A stretch of 64,000 nucleotides of DNA from Candidatus Nealsonbacteria bacterium (GTDB lineage: Bacteria; Patescibacteriota; Minisyncoccia; Minisyncoccales; RBG-13-42-11), in contig JAPLXK010000014.1 of NCBI GenBank assembly GCA_026396095.1, positions 212 to 64,211 of the forward strand, written 5' to 3'. A model generated the notes under the pieces. The model was not told the DNA's origin. It searched no databases and saw only the letters and a list, made by a program, of their open reading frames with translations. The translations under genes and the position numbers were made by a program. Every line of letters starts with the position of its first letter. Within the stretch, counting starts at the first letter, position 1. Of this stretch, positions 1,387 through 20,772 are shown one piece after another.

Positions 1387-2955
1387 TTATCTTCTAATGG
1401 GTAATTCAATAAAAACTGTACTTCCTTTTCCTTTACCGGGCGACTCAGCCCAGATTCTGCCGTTATGAAAATCTACAAAGCGCTTGGCAATATGAAGGCC
1501 CAAGCCGGCTCCCTCTGCAGAAAGCTTGTTCCCGGCCGAACCCCTGGAAAAGCTTTTAAATAGTTTTGATATTTCTTCTTCTGCCATTCCGTCTCCTGTA
1601 TCAGATATCTCAATTCTGACTTTTGAATCATGGCTTTTTGCCCTTATAGTAACTCCTCCTTGGTTGGTATATTTTATGGCATTATCCATCAAATTCATGA
1701 TCACCTGCTTCATTTTGTCTTTATCAATAAAAATCTTGGGCAAAGAAGCTTCCGGTTTTTCCAGCTTCAGATAAAGCTTCTTCTTTTCTGCCTGCATTTT
1801 TGTTTCCTCCATCGCCAGGTTAATTACCTCTTCTATCGGAGTTTCTTCAAAATTCATGTCCACCCCTCCCGCTTCAATGCGGGAAATATTTAAAAGCTCA
1901 TTTATCAGCTTTATCAGCCTCTCGGTTGATTGATACACATTTTCTATGGGCGGTCTGTTCTTGTCGGTTAGCTTGCCATAACTTCCCTCAAGGAGCAAAG
2001 AAACATATCCCTTTATGGCTGTTAAGGGAGTTCTTAGCTGATGGGAAGCAATTGAGACAAATTCCGATTTGGCCTTATCAAGTTTTTGAAGTTCTTGATA
2101 GGCGTCTTGAAGTTTTTCTCTGTATTTAATTTCCTGCAAGACACCCCGAACAAGAAGAGATCCTGAAATGGTAAAAAGAAAGAATAGGGATCCTCTCCAA
2201 ATATAATCAAATGTTGATTGAGAGAGAAAAATTTGAACTAATAATAAGATACCAATCGCTCCAACTAAAATTTCTGTTAGAATCACTTTTATATCAAAAA
2301 GGTGATACCTCGCCACGGCAACGGCGGTAAGAATTATATAGAGGACCACCAATCCATTGCCGACGGGAGGGATGGGAACGTTATACCATAAAAAATAATT
2401 GGTCGAACCACCAAGAAACCCAATTAAAGTTCCTAATAATATGTATTGTATTTGTACCTTTTTTTGACCCTCGGAGTGCTCATGTGCCTTAGCTAATAAC
2501 CACCAAGAATACATCGCCCACGTAAAAAACATTAAAAGATAAAAATGATATAAAATTCCTGGTTCTGCCCAAAATTTAAATCCAAATTTGGGAACCATAT
2601 CTCTAATGAAAAGATTGGTAAAATCAAATATTAAAAAAACAAAAGATAAGAAATAACCAAAAATAAGGAGTTTCTTTTTCTTTTCACCCAAGTCTAAAAA
2701 TGTGAGCACGAAATGTAAATAAGTTGTTGAAACAAAGATGGAACCAATATGCAAGACGCGAAATGCGAGAAGAGCTGTATTTTTATCTTGAGCTCCGGGC
2801 CAAAAAATATAGGCCCAGCTCCAGGCTGCCACGCTCAAACAAAATAAAGCAAATTGTCGGTTGACTGGATTTTTTTTATTCGTAAGATAAACAAAAAGAC
2901 CTAAAAAGCTACTGGCGATAGCATTAATTAGGCCTGTTAAAACATAATAAAGCAT
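1387..2955 (-). CDS. Sensor histidine kinase with polytopic membrane N-terminal domain
   Basis: About 270 aa of consecutive hydrophobic helices. H-box SIASHQLRTPLTAIKGY, N-box MNLMDNAIKYT, G-boxes DTGDGM and GAGLGL. Confidence 0.85.
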   Translation of the reverse strand: MLYYVLTGLINAIASSFLGLFVYLTNKKNPVNRQFALFCLSVAAWSWAYIFWPGAQDKNTALLAFRVLHIGSIFVSTTYLHFVLTFLDLGEKKKKLLIFGYFLSFVFLIFDFTNLFIRDMVPKFGFKFWAEPGILYHFYLLMFFTWAMYSWWLLAKAHEHSEGQKKVQIQYILLGTLIGFLGGSTNYFLWYNVPIPPVGNGLVVLYIILTAVAVARYHLFDIKVILTEILVGAIGILLLVQIFLSQSTFDYIWRGSLFFLFTISGSLLVRGVLQEIKYREKLQDAYQELQKLDKAKSEFVSIASHQLRTPLTAIKGYVSLLLEGSYGKLTDKNRPPIENVYQSTERLIKLINELLNISRIEAGGVDMNFEETPIEEVINLAMEETKMQAEKKKLYLKLEKPEASLPKIFIDKDKMKQVIMNLMDNAIKYTNQGGVTIRAKSHDSKVRIEISDTGDGMAEEEISKLFKSFSRGSAGNKLSAEGAGLGLHIAKRFVDFHNGRIWAESPGKGKGSTVFIELPIRR

Positions 2956-15233: not shown

Positions 15234-16268
15234 ATGATAGAAATAGACGGTTTAAACTTAAAGGAGGGCGGACAGGTGCTAAGAACAGCTTTTGCTCTTT
15301 CGGCAATCACTAAAAAAGATTGCCATTTTTTTAATATTCGAAGTAACGAAGCAAGTCCAGGACTAACATCTAAACAGCTTGCAGGCCTTAAATCTTTAAC
15401 TCAAATCTGTAATGCAAAAATGGAGGGCGATATGTTGGGAAGCAAGGAAATATCCTTTTCTCCTGATAGGCCTATAGAAGGCCAATCATCTTTTCATATA
15501 AAGAGTGAAATAGCTAACAGCATCACCTTATTCCTGCAATCCTTGATTCTGCCTATCATATTCTTTTCTAAACCCTTAAAGATTATTTTTGAAGGAGGGG
15601 CAACCGACACCTTTTTCTCTCCTACAATTGATTATTTTTCCCAGGTATTTTTAAAAACCTTGGAAAAAATGGGAATTAAGGCAGAAATAAACATCATTAA
15701 AAGGGGTTATTATCCCGAAGGTGGGGCAAGCGTTGAGGCTACTATTTTCCCCTCTAAATTAAAAAACCTCAATTTAATAAATAGGGGTAATCTTAAAATA
15801 ATTAAGGCTATATCCGGCGCTTCCGAGTCTTTGAAAGAGAAAAAAATAGCCGAAAGGCAGATGGCCGGAGTAAGAGAAGTTTTAGGAAAATTAAAACTAC
15901 CGATTGAAGAGAAAATTGAATATTATCAAACCCTTTGTCCAGGTAGCCAGATCTGTTTGATAGCTGAATTTGAAAATACTATAATCGGAACAGATAATCT
16001 GGGAAGATTGGGGAAAAGAGCGGAAGAATTAGGAAAAGAAGCTGCTCTAGAACTGTTGAAAGAATCAAAAACTAATACCTGTATAGACAAACATCTGACT
16101 GACCAGATTCTGCCTTTTATTGCTCTATCAGAAGGAAAAAGCAGATTTTCGGCCTCAGAAATAACCGAAAACTCTAAAAAAATTATTCAGATAATTGAAA
16201 AATTCTTAAACGGAAAATTTGAAATTAAAGAAAGTATAATCTCCTGGAATCCCAATCTAGCAGGTTAG
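15234..16268 (+). CDS. rtcA: RNA 3'-terminal phosphate cyclase
   Basis: IEIDGLNLKEGGQVLRTAFALSAIT (RtcA N-terminal signature) and the catalytic-His region DKHLTDQILPFIAL. Confidence 0.85.
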   Translation: MIEIDGLNLKEGGQVLRTAFALSAITKKDCHFFNIRSNEASPGLTSKQLAGLKSLTQICNAKMEGDMLGSKEISFSPDRPIEGQSSFHIKSEIANSITLFLQSLILPIIFFSKPLKIIFEGGATDTFFSPTIDYFSQVFLKTLEKMGIKAEINIIKRGYYPEGGASVEATIFPSKLKNLNLINRGNLKIIKAISGASESLKEKKIAERQMAGVREVLGKLKLPIEEKIEYYQTLCPGSQICLIAEFENTIIGTDNLGRLGKRAEELGKEAALELLKESKTNTCIDKHLTDQILPFIALSEGKSRFSASEITENSKKIIQIIEKFLNGKFEIKESIISWNPNLAG

Positions 16269-16619
16269 ATGAAAAAAACCGATTACCTTGTTTTGCTCTC
16301 CTTCTTCCTCTTCTGAATCATCACGGATTACATTAAAAGTTTTTACCGCATCTTCAGTTTTATCAATAATAAGCTTTATTCCTTTTTCAATGATAAGCTT
16401 TTTAGCTTTTTCATCTACCTGGGCCACTCCCGACTCTCCTGTGCCTATAACGATCGTGTCGGGATTCAGTGCGACAGCCTCTTCAATATCCTCAACATAA
16501 ATAACGTGGGATTCTTCCCTCCACCACTCCACCACCTCATCTGTCCATAAAACCTCCACATCGTGGTTATATGTTTTTCCGTTAATTGTAATTGAACCGA
16601 ATTTATATTCTTCTATCAT
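16257..16619 (-). CDS. Mth938-like domain protein
   Basis: FGSITINGKTYNHDVEV...SHVIYVEDIEE...PDTIVIGTGESG pattern. 120 aa. Its 3' end overlaps the rtcA 3' end by 12 nt (convergent). Confidence 0.55.
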   Translation of the reverse strand: MIEEYKFGSITINGKTYNHDVEVLWTDEVVEWWREESHVIYVEDIEEAVALNPDTIVIGTGESGVAQVDEKAKKLIIEKGIKLIIDKTEDAVKTFNVIRDDSEEEEGEQNKVIGFFHLTC

Positions 16620-16620
16620 T

Positions 16621-17865
16621 TTAAAACAAGGTTTTTTGTTTTATTAAGCTTTTCTCTTCTCCTTTAGAGAAAACCCTTACTCTTCCATATACTCCATCAT
16701 ATCCCGGCTCCTTAAAAACCCTTCCCTCTCTTACCCTTATTATCCCTTCCGCAATCTCGGGCAGAGTGACTTTTGCCAGTTTTTTTTGAGAAGCATCTAA
16801 AAGAATACTGAACTCTGAATCAAAATTTTCAATCAAATTATTGTATTCTTTTTCAACCTGCTTGGTCCCGGTTCCTTTATTTAAAACATCGGCAATGATT
16901 TCTTCCAAGGGAGCCAGGCTTTTAAAGGGAATCATCCCTTGTGGCTTGAATCCTTCTTCTTTATCAGCTATTGCCTCAATCCTGTTCAGAACCCCTATGG
17001 TCAACGGCTTTCCGCAAACAGGACAAATACCGTTATATTTCTTGGTCTCCTGAGGAGATAAACGCACATTGCAAATCCTGTGCCCGTCATAATGGTATTT
17101 TCCCTCTTCTGGATAAAACTCAACTGTATATAAAAACTTTTTAGGATCTTTGGTCTTAATCGCTTCAATAATAGCATGATAACTCATTTCCGTATCAAAA
17201 ACATTTGCCTCTCTTCCTATTTTTTGAGGAGAATGAGCGTCGCTGTTTGAAATTAAAGCCACTCTTCTGCCGTCAGGAATCCTCCAAAGCATTGCAGGAT
17301 CAGCAGAAAGCCCTGTTTCCATGGCATAAATATATTTTGAATAATCATCAAAGCATTCTTCAATTGAATCAAACCCTGATTTAGATCCGAATATGGCAAA
17401 CCAGGGCGTCATACAATGAGCCGGCACAAACAAGCAATCTTCCGAGGCGTCTAAAACAATTTTTAACAATTCTTTCACGTCCAGTCCAAGAATCGGCCGT
17501 CCATCGGATTTAATGTTTCCAATCAGATTTAATCGAGTATTGATTTTCTCTACAACTTCAAAAGACGGAGCAAAAATTATAACATGAATTTTTCGAACCT
17601 TGTCTTTTTTCTTATAAATGCAGCTTATCTCCGAAGTAAGAATAAACCTTGTTTCCGATTTCCCTTTTTTTAATTTAAATAAACCTGCTTCAGCAGGTTC
17701 CAGCTCTTGTTTTAAATTTTTAAACCATTCCGGATGGGTGAAATCTCCCGTGCCCAAAACCTTGATTCCTTTGATCTTTGCCCATTTATCCAGATTTTCC
17801 AAATCCATATTCCTGGCAGTGGCTCGGGAATATTTGCTATGTATATGAAAATCAGCAATAAACAT
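16621..17865 (-). CDS. PHP-domain nuclease, endonuclease Q-like
   Basis: FIADFHIHSKYSRAT PHP motif at the N-terminus, internal SNSDAHSP, and a CPVCGKPLTIGVLNRI zinc-ribbon-like segment. Confidence 0.6.
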   Translation of the reverse strand: MFIADFHIHSKYSRATARNMDLENLDKWAKIKGIKVLGTGDFTHPEWFKNLKQELEPAEAGLFKLKKGKSETRFILTSEISCIYKKKDKVRKIHVIIFAPSFEVVEKINTRLNLIGNIKSDGRPILGLDVKELLKIVLDASEDCLFVPAHCMTPWFAIFGSKSGFDSIEECFDDYSKYIYAMETGLSADPAMLWRIPDGRRVALISNSDAHSPQKIGREANVFDTEMSYHAIIEAIKTKDPKKFLYTVEFYPEEGKYHYDGHRICNVRLSPQETKKYNGICPVCGKPLTIGVLNRIEAIADKEEGFKPQGMIPFKSLAPLEEIIADVLNKGTGTKQVEKEYNNLIENFDSEFSILLDASQKKLAKVTLPEIAEGIIRVREGRVFKEPGYDGVYGRVRVFSKGEEKSLIKQKTLF

Positions 17866-17923
17866 CGCAATATTGCCTTTTAGAAATTAAGGCAAGGTTC
17901 TTGAAATATTTAATTAAAAGGCT

Positions 17924-18190
17924 TTAGACCTTATAAACCTTGTAATCTTCCCTTACTTTTTGTTCCGTTTTGAGCCCTACCGAATCTCCCTTCTTGGCTT
18001 TCTTTATCTTTTCGTGTTCAACTTCCATTGATTTGGCTTCCTGGGTGAAATCCGTCTCTCCTCCTATAAATCTTATCTCGTCTCCTTCTTCCAGCTTGTC
18101 TTTAAGCTCGATTACCGCCACCCCGATGTGGCCGAAATAATGACTTACTCTGCCAATTAATTTTTCTTTTTTTGAACTATTTTTTGGCAT
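17924..18190 (-). CDS. Small beta-barrel protein (EF-Tu domain-2-like)
   Basis: 88 aa: IGRVSHYFGHIGVAVIELKDKLEEGDEIRF...KKGDSVGLK. Overlaps the upstream gene by 14 nt. Confidence 0.4.
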   Translation of the reverse strand: MPKNSSKKEKLIGRVSHYFGHIGVAVIELKDKLEEGDEIRFIGGETDFTQEAKSMEVEHEKIKKAKKGDSVGLKTEQKVREDYKVYKV

Positions 18191-18758
18191 TTTTTAAGGT
18201 TCTTTTTTTATGAGCGCGACCTTTTTTGATTACTTGGATAAGCTTTGCCACTAATTTCTTGGGATCTTTCTCGTAAATAATCTGCTTTTTGTTTTTGTGA
18301 GTCATTTTTAGCAAATTCTTTATCATGTCAGCTGTTCCTCCGCTCCCTTCTAGGACGGCTGTCGGCTTCTCGTCTTCAAAGGCAATGGTAAATTCATTCA
18401 ATGTTCCCATCCTTCCGTAAATGACAATTATGCCGTCAGATGCTCTGGTCATTAAAAGGTTTCTTCCTGCATAGTCGAACCCGGTATAGACAATCACGTC
18501 AAAAACGTCTGTGGGCAGCTTGTAGGCCCTGACATGGGACAATTTAGAGGCGGCCGGGGAAAAGCCGATAGAAATTCCGCCTGCGGCTTTAGCTGCTTTG
18601 GCAGAGTAATAGGGAACGCCGGTAGTTGCTCCTGTAATTAAAACACAGCCCTGCCTGATAATTTCTCTGCCCACTTCTTCGGCCAATCTTATGGTTTCTT
18701 TCGGGCAATTCTTCAGGTTAGCGGCGCCGGAAACGGCGATTTTTAAGTTATTTTCCAT
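18177..18758 (-). CDS. TIGR00725/LOG-like Rossmann-fold nucleotide-binding protein
   Basis: IAVSGAAN...GREIIRQGCVLITGATTGVPYYSAKAAKAAGGISIGFSP. Confidence 0.6.
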   Translation of the reverse strand: MENNLKIAVSGAANLKNCPKETIRLAEEVGREIIRQGCVLITGATTGVPYYSAKAAKAAGGISIGFSPAASKLSHVRAYKLPTDVFDVIVYTGFDYAGRNLLMTRASDGIIVIYGRMGTLNEFTIAFEDEKPTAVLEGSGGTADMIKNLLKMTHKNKKQIIYEKDPKKLVAKLIQVIKKGRAHKKRTLKNAKK

Positions 18759-18785
18759 AGTGTATTTATTTTAACAGGTTTTATC

Positions 18786-18952
18786 TAAAAAATATATGGG
18801 CAGAAAAAATCGCCCATATATTTGAGGGAGAAACAATTCTTAACGAATTTGACATTTTACCCAAGTCCGATTGGACATTAACCGGGCAGCTGCGTAAGCC
18901 TCCTCCCTTAAAAATTGTTTGTCCATAGGGAATAAAATCCCGCACCCCCTCG
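18786..18952 (-). ncRNA. Candidate structured leader or small RNA upstream of the LOG-like gene
   Basis: Bounded by a sigma70-like promoter (18959..18987) and an intrinsic terminator, ATATATGGGC-N10-GCCCATATAT followed by TTTTTT (18787..18821). Internal helices include GGGAGGAG pairing with UUUCUCCC, and GUCC-AAUC-GGAC. It holds no convincing ORF. Confidence 0.4.
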
Positions 18953-18958
18953 GCTTCC

Positions 18959-18987
18959 AGTGTAGAAATAAGAAAAGCTCTTGTCAA
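18959..18987 (-). promoter_or_regulatory. Sigma70-like promoter TTGACA-N17-TACACT
   Basis: Minus strand reads TTGACAagagcttttcttatttcTACACT. Confidence 0.45.
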
Positions 18988-19058
18988 CCTTTTAAAGCTT
19001 AATAAAGACTTAAAGCTTATCCCCAGGTTATTAACAATAAAAAGAGGTCCCGTAGGAC

Positions 19059-19337
19059 CTATAAGAAAATATGATAATAGAAAAGAGTCAGCCAAAAAAC
19101 ATAAATGGCAAGAACTGTGGCTATTCCGATAAATAACTTTAACAGCAATTCCCACGTAGCATAGGGGCGGCAAAAATCAAAAATAGATTTTTTGCTCCTG
19201 GAATTAGGACAACTGCCGTCATGGTTACATTTGTCTGATCCGCAATTGCAATCGCTCTTTTTTTCTTCTCTCGTATGAAAACTAACTTCTACTCAATCTT
19301 TATCGTCGAATGAACCATCAGAGTCGCACTCTCCCAT
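19059..19337 (-). other. 93-codon Cys-rich membrane mini-gene frame interrupted by one in-frame TGA (codon 15)
   Basis: Translation: MGECDSDGSFDDKD*VEVSFHTREEKKSDCNCGSDKCNHDGSCPNSRSKKSIFDFCRPYATWELLLKLFIGIATVLAIYVFWLTLFYYHIFL*. GAGGTG lies 6 nt before the ATG. A promoter-like TTGACT-N17-TAATTT is at 19398..19426. A hairpin terminator AGGTCCTACGGGACCTCTTTTT follows directly at the stop. Confidence 0.3.
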
Positions 19338-19424
19338 CGCCAGCACCTCGTTTTTAATGTTCTATTGTCATTCCAATAATAAATATTGGGATTAATAAAA
19401 TTATCATTATTGATAATTTAAGTC

Positions 19425-19459
19425 AAATAAAAAGACCCTGGTAATAAATTTACCTGGGG
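19425..19459 (-). terminator. Rho-independent terminator of the 19491..19871 gene
   Basis: Minus strand reads CCCCAGGTAAATTTATTACCAGGGTCTTTTTATTT. Confidence 0.6.
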
Positions 19460-19490
19460 CCTTGGATATCGAAAGTGAACAGCAATCTTA

Positions 19491-19871
19491 TTATTCGCAT
19501 TTGAGCTGAAGAGTTATTTTTACGTTAAAATTGGACGCCAGGACATCCGCCAGATTCTTGGCCAATTGAATGTTTGTCCGGCCGATAACGTTGAAGACCC
19601 AATTACCATCATTAGCATTATATTTCCTGCTCTCAAGCCAAATTACTCCGATAAAGTCTGGGTACGGCTTTTCTGTGATTAAGCCGAACAATCTTTTGTA
19701 GGGCTTCTTTTCAGGGTCTTTATGCAGGACGCCGACATGATCCATATAGCACAGGGTGCTCAATCTGCAACCGTCGGAATTGCCGGGAATAAATCCTTTG
19801 GCAATCAGGAAATTGCCCACTTGAATTGACAGGGTTTCCTTATATTCAACCAATCCAACTTTCTCGCTCAT
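19491..19871 (-). CDS. Hypothetical protein
   Basis: 126-aa ORF with its own terminator. No motif recognised. Confidence 0.45.
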   Translation of the reverse strand: MSEKVGLVEYKETLSIQVGNFLIAKGFIPGNSDGCRLSTLCYMDHVGVLHKDPEKKPYKRLFGLITEKPYPDFIGVIWLESRKYNANDGNWVFNVIGRTNIQLAKNLADVLASNFNVKITLQLKCE

Positions 19872-20005
19872 TTTTTTCTCCTGTTAAGGTGCTAAAAAAT
19901 TCAATCAAAACCTATGTTTTGATGTGCTTAAACTATAACATATTTTAAAATTTAGTCAAAAATAAAAACTGGCCGGCTGTCCCCGGACAATCTTGTTTTC
20001 TTTAG

Positions 20006-20077
20006 TGCCCCCGACAGGAATTGAACCTGTATTTCTTCCTTCGGAGGGAAGTACTTTATCCGTTAAGCTACGGGGGC
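20006..20077 (-). tRNA. tRNA-Arg (anticodon CCG)
   Basis: Cloverleaf by hand: acceptor GCCCCCG/CGGGGGC, anticodon arm CTTCC-CTCCGAA-GGAAG, T-arm ACAGG-TTCAATT-CCTGT. No encoded CCA. Confidence 0.9.
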
Positions 20078-20082
20078 AAAAT

Positions 20083-20772
20083 TTACTTTTCAGCCACTAG
20101 CACAATATTGCTTTCTTCGCTTTCGGGCCTTTTTAAAATCCTTATTTCCTTCACGCTTAATCCGACTCTCTCGACAAGCCCTTTTATCTCGGACATAGAA
20201 AAATAATGAACGTAGCGCTGGGTCTTGTCTCCCCAACCAACAAAGCTGTCGCTCAAATCAATCTTTGATAATCCTACAATCCTTAAAATAAGATTTTTAA
20301 AAATTAACAATGCTTTTTTCCGGCGGGGAAGATACCAAACCGTTAAAAATAATTTACCTTTCGGTTTTAAAACTCTTTTCGCCTCATTCAAAAACTTAAA
20401 GCGGAACTCTTTAGAGGGAATGTGATGGAAAACAGCAATTCCGAATACGTTGTCGAAAAGATTATCCGAAAATGGTAGATTTAAAGCATCTCCTACCCGG
20501 AATCTTGCCCTGGGGTAGCGACTTTTAGCAATTTCGATCAGTTTTTCAGAAATGTCTATTCCGCAGTAACCGACTATTTTATCCTTGAATAATTCATACA
20601 GCCTGCCATTTCCGCAACCTAGGTCCAGGACTCTTTTATTGACAGCTACGTTATCCGCAAAAAATTTCAATTCCTCCCAGTTTTTGTTCCTGGTTCTTGA
20701 AAAATCATCGGAAATAAGGTTATAATCATTCTTGGTTTTTTCAAGGAGATAAGCAGCATATTCTTTTTTCAT
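20083..20772 (-). CDS. Class I SAM-dependent methyltransferase (type 11)
   Basis: VLDLGCGNGR SAM loop and DNVFGIAVFHHI motif. Confidence 0.8.
   Translation of the reverse strand: MKKEYAAYLLEKTKNDYNLISDDFSRTRNKNWEELKFFADNVAVNKRVLDLGCGNGRLYELFKDKIVGYCGIDISEKLIEIAKSRYPRARFRVGDALNLPFSDNLFDNVFGIAVFHHIPSKEFRFKFLNEAKRVLKPKGKLFLTVWYLPRRKKALLIFKNLILRIVGLSKIDLSDSFVGWGDKTQRYVHYFSMSEIKGLVERVGLSVKEIRILKRPESEESNIVLVAEK

Follow-up and report, generated by a model that had tools for sequence, protein, structure and literature searches.

A covarying, pseudoknotted RNA with a predicted dimerization site upstream of SLOG genes in Parcubacteria

Type III toxin-antitoxin systems such as ToxI-ToxN are laid out as a promoter, an RNA, a terminator and a protein gene, with the terminator setting the ratio of RNA to protein. 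Natural RNA homodimers and oligomers joined by palindromic pairing or by kissing loops are also known, and the dimerization initiation site (DIS) of human immunodeficiency virus type 1 (HIV-1) is an example. The group IIC introns HYER1 and HYER5, OLE, ARRPOF and the cobalamin riboswitch have been reviewed as natural RNA dimers or oligomers (PMC12990946), and ROOL, GOLLD and OLE have been described as natural RNA assemblies (PMC12286853). The raiA motif RNA is an orphan structured RNA that is found beside a characteristic gene and is made as a separate RNA (PMC10861870). Here, we describe a structured element on the minus strand of a 64-kb stretch of DNA (the window) from Candidatus Nealsonbacteria, which belongs to the Candidate Phyla Radiation (CPR)/Parcubacteria lineage. 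The element lies directly upstream of a gene encoding a SLOG/TIGR00725-like protein, and its sequence, predicted fold and distribution were compared with those of its counterparts at related loci.

In a preliminary description of the window, the order of promoter, structured region and intrinsic terminator in front of the SLOG gene was called riboswitch-like. That layout next to a TIGR00725/SLOG gene is real, while the switch reading has been weakened, because a conserved antiterminator is lacking, the predicted start is fixed at the first helix (P1), and SLOG possesses an extended -10 element of its own. The two options offered at that time, a transcription-attenuating cis-regulator or a stand-alone small RNA (sRNA), are still the right pair. 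Between these, we favor a separately transcribed, dimer-forming small RNA of an uncatalogued family over a terminator-type riboswitch, a preference that the sequence evidence leaves evenly poised between right and wrong.

The comparison drew on 160 loci encoding SLOG relatives, of which genomes and metagenomes contributed 80 each. All loci were obtained via SLOG homology, so that adjacency to SLOG is partly built into the sample, and only the locus flanks and the 64-kb window bear on whether the linkage to SLOG is exclusive. A covariance model (R1) was built from an alignment (A1), and the model-based alignment (A2) comprised 42 sequences; 42 representatives were used for the counts of promoters, terminators and open reading frames (ORFs). 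Two elements of the structure counted on A2, a pseudoknot and a palindrome, are not part of the covariance model. The features of the element in the window are as follows.

18982-18987, minus strand: -35 hexamer TTGACA of the RNA promoter, matched perfectly at the corresponding position by 41 of 42 representatives.
18959-18964, minus strand: -10 hexamer TACACT, separated from the -35 hexamer by a 17-nt spacer and from the first G of P1 by 7 nt.
18787-18951, minus strand: predicted RNA transcript of ~165 nt, beginning, by promoter and terminator geometry, with the first G of P1 and running through the U-run.
18951-18945 and 18830-18824, minus strand: P1, GAGGGGG/CUCCCUC, 7 bp, closing the molecule; all cells paired.
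18928-18941, minus strand: P1a hairpin (GGGA-loop-UCCC; strands 18941-18938 and 18931-18928); all cells paired.
18925-18920 and 18877-18872, minus strand: pseudoknot UGGACA/UGUCCA, with its 5' strand upstream of P2 and its 3' strand in the P3 loop.
18918-18905 and 18846-18833, minus strand: P2, 14 bp; both-side changes in 13 of 14 pairs.
18899-18904, minus strand: AGGAGG, nearly invariant and Shine-Dalgarno (SD)-like, in the internal loop between P2 and P2a; conserved columns in A1.
18900-18898 and 18853-18851, minus strand: P2a, GGC/GUC; all 3 pairs changed on both sides, 97% of cells paired.
18886-18893, minus strand: 8-nt self-complementary tract GCAGCUGC between P2a and P3, the predicted intermolecular dimerization site.
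18867-18885, minus strand: P3 hairpin CCGGU/AUCGG (strands 18885-18881 and 18871-18867); all 5 pairs changed on both sides.
18787-18823, minus strand: intrinsic terminator, made up of a hairpin (12-nt arms, 10-nt loop) and U6 at 18792-18787.

The promoter TTGACA-N17-TACACT, reported earlier on the minus strand, was located at 18987-18982 and 18964-18959. Across the representatives, it takes the form of TTGACA, a spacer of 16 to 17 nt and TAnnnT, a near-consensus sigma-70-type promoter. The gap between the -10 hexamer and P1 was 7 nt in 28 representatives, 6 nt in 5, 8 nt in 6, 5 nt in 1 and 9 nt in 1, so that it was 7 ± 1 nt in 39 of 41, and this geometry predicts the first base (G) of P1 as the 5' end of the RNA. 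Promoter-like matches in the region numbered 4, against 6.2 expected, and the promoter match alone is thus not above chance in A+T-rich DNA; the case therefore rests on the comparison with other genomes. At the 3' end, the terminator hairpin and U-run that had been noted about 30 nt before the ATG at 18758 were found, with inverted-repeat arms that are perfect over 12 nt (18790-18801 and 18812-18823) and a U-run (TTTTTT) that ends 28 nt short of the SLOG ATG. The folded stem, TATATGGGCGA/TCTGCCCATATA, has a free energy of -12.9 kcal/mol. The hairpin was missed by a terminator consensus scan solely through the loop limit of that scan, 8 nt, compared with an actual loop of 10 nt. A terminator hairpin with a U-run was present 0 to 8 nt past P1 in 37 of 42 representatives under a strict rule and in 3 more by eye. 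At the level of sequence prediction, a promoter and an intrinsic terminator of its own bound a short non-coding transcript, as expected of an sRNA gene.

Two repeat features were seen around the terminator in related loci. In L083, a tandem duplicate of the terminator hairpin is present downstream of the RNA (~2395-2475). An inverted-repeat element, CCGTTAGARA ... TYTCTAACGG, recurs in several genomes with its arms 40 to 290 nt apart (L002, 2417-2474; L146, 2422-2483; L081, 2373-2490; L005, 4533-4661; L161, 2046/2337). It often lies between the RNA and SLOG, where it can stand in for the terminator hairpin, is not found in the window and may be a small palindromic mobile repeat.

The preliminary description had proposed looking for the motif upstream of orthologous genes and checking it for covariation. 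When the 732-nt intergenic region was compared by blastn, only window positions 18951-18823 and their flanks were conserved. The nucleotide identity of this ~130-nt core is 69 to 84%, compared with merely 58 to 80% identity for the SLOG proteins. Core instances were detected at 31 to 40 loci by blastn and nhmmer, with iterated nhmmer giving 40. A search with R1 found the RNA in the window (123.9 bits; E = 2e-27) and at 45 other loci, two of which were weak matches (L090 and L110) that by eye possess the same promoter, P1, pseudoknot and a palindrome. All 46 copies are on the SLOG strand, directly upstream of SLOG, and R1 gave no further significant match over 818 kb searched on both strands.

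The ~130-nt structured region described earlier is borne out both by folding and by covariation. A 175-nt RNA folded better than its shuffled versions (z = -3.5; 1 of 200 shuffles equally good), and RNAalifold, run on a structure-blind MAFFT alignment, predicted 31 pairs, of which 29 showed compensatory changes. On A2, 35 of 41 pairs had both-side changes. The paired cells amounted to 93.2%, compared with 79.2% in column shuffles (a level reached by none of the 500), although relatedness among the sequences inflates this and the other shuffle-based statistics. The covariation signal is nevertheless argued to be real because of controls in which the partners were slid by 1 to 3 columns, which left 40 to 54% of cells paired, and because many distinct pair types occur. 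Frequent G-U pairs occur, and the transcribed strand is therefore fixed. The RNA thus contains a conserved structured domain with covariation support, as would be expected of an aptamer domain.

The predicted fold backed by covariation is different from the one drawn in the preliminary description. There, GGGAGGAG was paired with UUUCUCCC to enclose two hairpins, whereas covariation places CUCCCUC with the 5' GAGGGGG as P1, for which compensatory variants such as GAGGAGG/CCUCCUC were seen. Likewise, in place of a hairpin GUCC-AAUC-GGAC, covariation supports CCGGU/AUCGG (P3), with UGUCC in its loop, together with the pseudoknot. The highest mutual information in the alignment was found for a pair of P1a, at columns 19/27; P1a is absent from five divergent members (L019, L021, L121, L090 and L110). 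As had been noted, no start codon follows the SD-like AGGAGG tract, as read directly from the sequence, and AGGAG is nearly invariant in its internal loop. The pseudoknot is mostly invariant, and its statistical support is modest for that reason; independent compensations were GGGC/GCCC (L120, L090 and L110), GGGU/GCCC (L044) and AGGC/GCCU (L019). The distal domain, consisting of the palindrome, P3 and the pseudoknot 3' strand, is missing in L098 (2307-2442) and L104 (2306-2441), and in both of these the pseudoknot 5' strand is altered along with it.

The self-complementary tract between P2a and P3 varies widely among genomes while remaining a palindrome. Versions in other genomes include GUAGCUAC, GCGGCCGC, GGAUAUCC, GGACGUCC, GUGCGCAC, GCACGUGC and GGGUACCC, and further versions are GAGUACUC, GUGUACAC, AGAAUUCU, GCCUAGGC, UUGCGCAA, AUGCGCAU and others; at least ~16 distinct sequences occur at the tract, each of them self-complementary. 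In an alignment that was not fitted to the pairs counted here, 93% of palindrome cells were paired, a level that none of 500 shuffles reached (70% in shuffles), and 31 cells had both-side changes, compared with 8 expected. By corrected mutual information, the two inner pairs of the palindrome come second and third of all column pairs, with CG 22, GC 7, UA 6 and AU 1 at columns 72/78 and GC 23, CG 6, UA 6 and AU 1 at columns 75/76. Palindromic character is thus kept by compensatory change, the sequence pattern that a homodimer would leave.

Because the halves of the palindrome are adjacent and no loop is possible, the tract cannot pair within one molecule. The simplest reading is that two RNA molecules would pair via the tract and so form a symmetric homodimer. 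For the 8-bp helix predicted between them, the median free energy is -13.7 kcal/mol, and cofolding of two window RNAs gave -127.5 kcal/mol, compared with 2 x -59.3 kcal/mol for two monomers. If the RNA dimerizes in this manner, changing GCAGCUGC to GCAGGUGC would abolish the dimer. A bolder form of the proposal, in which a compact, CPR-specific RNA of ~130 to 165 nt is an obligate symmetric homodimer held by the 8-bp palindromic junction helix and serves either as an RNA partner of the SLOG/beta-barrel protein pair or as a cooperative dimeric sensor, is put forward tentatively, at a little under an even chance.

In a neighbor-joining tree of 160 SLOG proteins, the 46 RNA-bearing loci all fall in one 75-leaf clade, within which RNA-bearing and RNA-less members are interspersed. 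This distribution fits a single origin followed by several losses. A search of the RNA-less clade members with filters off detected no degenerate copies of the RNA. In close relatives lacking it (L004, L037 and L086), where its absence was confirmed with filters off, tRNA-Arg(CCG) is followed directly by an extended -10 element and the ATG. RNA-less relatives keep SLOG; therefore, SLOG does not need the RNA. Among loci gathered through SLOG, the RNA is so far restricted to one Parcubacteria clade. A pattern scan of IMG/VR viral contigs returned a sole match, L162, which was rejected as chance, since it lies in G+C-rich coding DNA and the model fails to recognize it. In L092, ARAGORN called a 93-nt tRNA-Gln at 2339-2431 (minus strand), opposite the RNA and overlapping its 3' half; this call is probably a false positive.

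We also considered whether the region is protein coding or a non-functional spacer with chance hairpins, an explanation that can be set aside almost entirely. Both candidate ORFs do exist in the window, one of 130 aa (18781-19173) and one of 28 aa (18840-18926), and the promoter-like match, as stated above, does not by itself exceed chance. In the orthologous regions, however, each of the six frames contains stops. The longest open stretch has a median length of 54 out of 72 codons and does not fall in a consistent frame from locus to locus. Only 10 of 42 sequences retain the ATG of the 28-aa ORF (18926); the other 32 have AAG, TAG, AGG, ACG and others in its place, TAG accounting for 8 of them. 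Neither ORF matched Pfam or NCBIfam, and the alignment indels are not multiples of three. Stops, lost start codons and a covariation pattern that is that of RNA helices thus rule out the protein-coding reading, and the 130-aa ORF, which had been judged unconvincing from the outset, is spurious.

The earlier failure to match the element to known riboswitch classes was extended to Rfam 15 (4227 covariance models). At gathering thresholds, the whole window yielded 5 tRNAs only. A 1-kb search to an E value of 10 gave noise, with a best hit outside the core that reached 22.6 bits where the gathering score is 80, and 12 other representatives searched to an E value of 0.1 gave tRNA-related and unrelated matches only. 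Membership in a known RNA family was ruled out on this basis, with no Rfam 15 match to the element in the window or in the 12 relatives.

Downstream of the terminator, three features on the same strand are relevant to how the RNA is transcribed and what it may act with.

18177-18758, minus strand: SLOG cluster 4/TIGR00725-like protein of 193 aa (Pfam PF18306; E = 2.9e-36).
18768-18776, minus strand: extended -10 element TGTTAAAAT (TGnTAnAAT), 9 nt before the SLOG ATG and downstream of the terminator.
17924-18190, minus strand: 88-aa beta-barrel protein, with a weak match to EF-Tu domain 2/U32_C; it overlaps the SLOG end.

The SLOG protein scored 93.8 bits against TIGR00725, under the curated cutoff of 106.9; its nearest solved structure is 1RCU, and more than 4,000 relatives were retrieved in a protein search at E values of 1e-10 or lower. 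Under a looser rule, 35 of 46 RNA-bearing loci and 53 of 111 RNA-less loci have a -10-like hexamer that precedes the SLOG ATG by 4 to 12 nt. In both groups, these -10 elements mostly carry the TG extension and lie at a distance of 6 to 10 nt from the ATG, and the same arrangement (TGnTAnAAT, 6 to 10 nt before the ATG) is common to Parcubacteria SLOG-family genes (L002-L161). SD-like sequences are rare before SLOG genes, and none is present at the SLOG gene of the window. The SLOG mRNA is predicted, from this arrangement, to be leaderless and made from its own promoter, and the promoter-RNA-terminator unit looks like an addition in front of a leaderless SLOG gene. An 88-aa gene follows SLOG in 44 of 46 RNA-bearing loci, and the wider gene order is conserved as well (window 16257-20772; L002-L161): class-I methyltransferase, tRNA-Arg(CCG), the RNA where present, SLOG, the 88-aa beta-barrel protein and a PHP-domain protein (MJ0043_C).

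Upstream of the RNA promoter, ~450 nt of the window (19045-19490, minus strand), between a 126-aa ORF (19491-19871) and the promoter, have no counterpart in related loci. Two ORFs lie in this stretch, one of 27 aa (19139-19222) and a hydrophobic one of 29 aa (19059-19148; MLLKLFIGIATVLAIYVFWLTLFYYHIFL), the latter ending at a hairpin that resembles a terminator (19060-19045).

An extended -10 element of its own precedes SLOG whether the RNA is there or not, and no conserved antiterminator was found; the RNA is therefore inferred to be a separate transcription unit. In the proposed mechanism, the strong RNA promoter would make an RNA of ~165 nt that starts at P1 and ends at the terminator, which would in turn shield SLOG from that promoter. 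The product would function as a folded RNA, probably a dimer, by binding a protein or a small ligand, and not as a classical riboswitch; as to its partner, the sole pointer is the kept adjacency to the pair of SLOG and 88-aa beta-barrel genes. Direct pairing of the RNA with the 5' end of the SLOG mRNA was rejected, as it gave no signal over 42 loci (median z of -0.07 against shuffles). In the window, the terminator 5' arm and loop (18805-18814) show perfect 10-nt complementarity to SLOG codons 5 to 8 (18735-18744). This pairing is not conserved (median z of 0.04; 0 of 39 loci below -2) and is probably due to chance.

Several observations weigh against a separate small RNA and would instead suit a terminator-type riboswitch, in which a P1-closed, pseudoknotted aptamer binds a ligand that sets read-through into the SLOG and beta-barrel genes. 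We regard this alternative as possible though rather doubtful. The ligand would plausibly be a nucleotide-derived metabolite, given the LOG-like enzyme downstream, and the dimer site would give cooperative sensing. The order of promoter, structured domain, terminator and gene holds in at least 40 of the 46 loci, the RNA being always on the gene strand and within ~110 nt of the SLOG start in ~40, as a cis-regulator would show. Insertions of more than 400 nt occur upstream of the RNA in ~9 loci; between the RNA and SLOG, by comparison, more than 200 nt are found in 2 loci. The highly conserved junction nucleotides and the pseudoknot are aptamer-like. In L044 and L120, which lack a separate terminator hairpin, P1 stands directly before the U-run, so that the RNA may run into the gene and termination could depend on whether P1 forms. 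The 5' strands of the terminators are more often G rich than those of control terminator hairpins (29:5, compared with 407:256; P = 0.006, uncorrected for relatedness), and many of them start with GAGG, the complement of CCUC in the 3' strand of P1, which would suit a CCUC:GAGG antiterminator. Finally, translation without an SD sequence appears normal in this genome, with an SD-like motif at ~6 of 62 window ORFs (a rough count in which start codons were assigned naively); since most window genes are apparently without one, read-through transcripts could still be translated.

Against a riboswitch of this type, P1 and the terminator are adjacent without overlap, the terminator lying 0 to 8 nt past P1, so that the expression platform of a riboswitch is not seen. 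A search for an antiterminator found no conserved, mutually exclusive structure, and the sole candidate was a CCUC:GAGG option of ~4 bp, accompanied by a modest G/C strand bias. Minimum-free-energy folds hold the P1-closed domain and the terminator together at once. Furthermore, the SLOG extended -10 element past the terminator would bypass any switch, relatives that have lost the RNA retain this predicted SLOG promoter, and the start predicted for the transcript is tied to base 1 of P1. The RNA is also associated with one gene family only, in a set collected through that family. That same tie to a single family, together with the retention of the SLOG and 88-aa gene pair at RNA-bearing loci, would be expected if SLOG or the 88-aa protein bound the RNA of its own locus and fed back on its termination or stability, in the manner of ribosomal-protein leaders. 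A protein-binding leader of this kind would draw further on the resemblance, albeit weak, of the 88-aa protein to EF-Tu domain 2 and U32_C, which are RNA-facing barrels, and a symmetric RNA dimer would suit an oligomeric protein. We nevertheless consider it unlikely: SLOG has a predicted promoter of its own, an alternative fold is not conserved, and RNA binding by either protein is conjecture. The basic C-terminal tails of SLOG proteins, moreover, are alike in both groups, with a median of 7.5 K/R in the last 20 residues with the RNA and 6 without it.

A separately made, possibly dimeric RNA would be of interest for several reasons. CPR/Patescibacteria genomes are tiny, and almost nothing was found published on their regulatory RNAs; a full-text literature search returned no paper on this RNA, on a TIGR00725-linked RNA or on riboswitches or structured RNAs native to CPR. 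A new, well-supported RNA family with a pseudoknot and a covarying, predicted dimerization site is a concrete, testable object in these organisms, and it offers a handle on the function of the very widespread SLOG/TIGR00725 protein. Small and tractable, it is also a candidate for the class of natural assemblies made of RNA only that is now emerging (PMC12990946, PMC12286853), and the homodimer, if true, would be among the smallest natural non-viral RNA quaternary assemblies. The locus further illustrates tandem units in CPR, in which a strong promoter, an RNA, a terminator and a leaderless promoter would follow one another.

Among the described systems, terminating riboswitches such as the purine and SAM-I classes share with this locus the promoter, the P1-closed multi-helix domain, the conservation of its junctions, the pseudoknot, the terminator and the same-strand gene. 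Unlike these, the present RNA has no Rfam match and neither an overlap of P1 with the terminator nor a conserved antiterminator; SLOG has its own predicted promoter after the terminator, and a covarying palindrome is unusual for riboswitches. Type III toxin-antitoxin systems are alike in the order of promoter, RNA, terminator and protein gene. Their antitoxins are marked by tandem repeats, and none was found in 18700-19500, nor any direct-repeat family within the element; an antitoxin RNA of this type was ruled out because tandem direct repeats are missing upstream of the terminator. The downstream gene, moreover, encodes a SLOG/LOG-like enzyme in a stable core-gene neighborhood and not an endoribonuclease toxin.

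The likeness to natural RNA homodimers lies in the self-complementary tract, which covariation keeps palindromic. The present RNA is much smaller (~130 to 165 nt), its dimer is predicted from covariation, and its palindrome is a junction strand between P2a and P3 rather than a hairpin loop; it has no sequence or structure similarity to HIV-1 DIS, HYER1/HYER5, OLE, ARRPOF, ROOL or GOLLD. With the raiA motif RNA, it shares a complex conserved fold, a recurrent gene neighbor and a promoter and terminator of its own, whereas it belongs to an unrelated family, is confined so far to one Parcubacteria clade and carries a predicted dimer site. On this comparison, we rate the element, which is a member of none of the families tested, as a structured RNA of a new class, in a system of a known kind.

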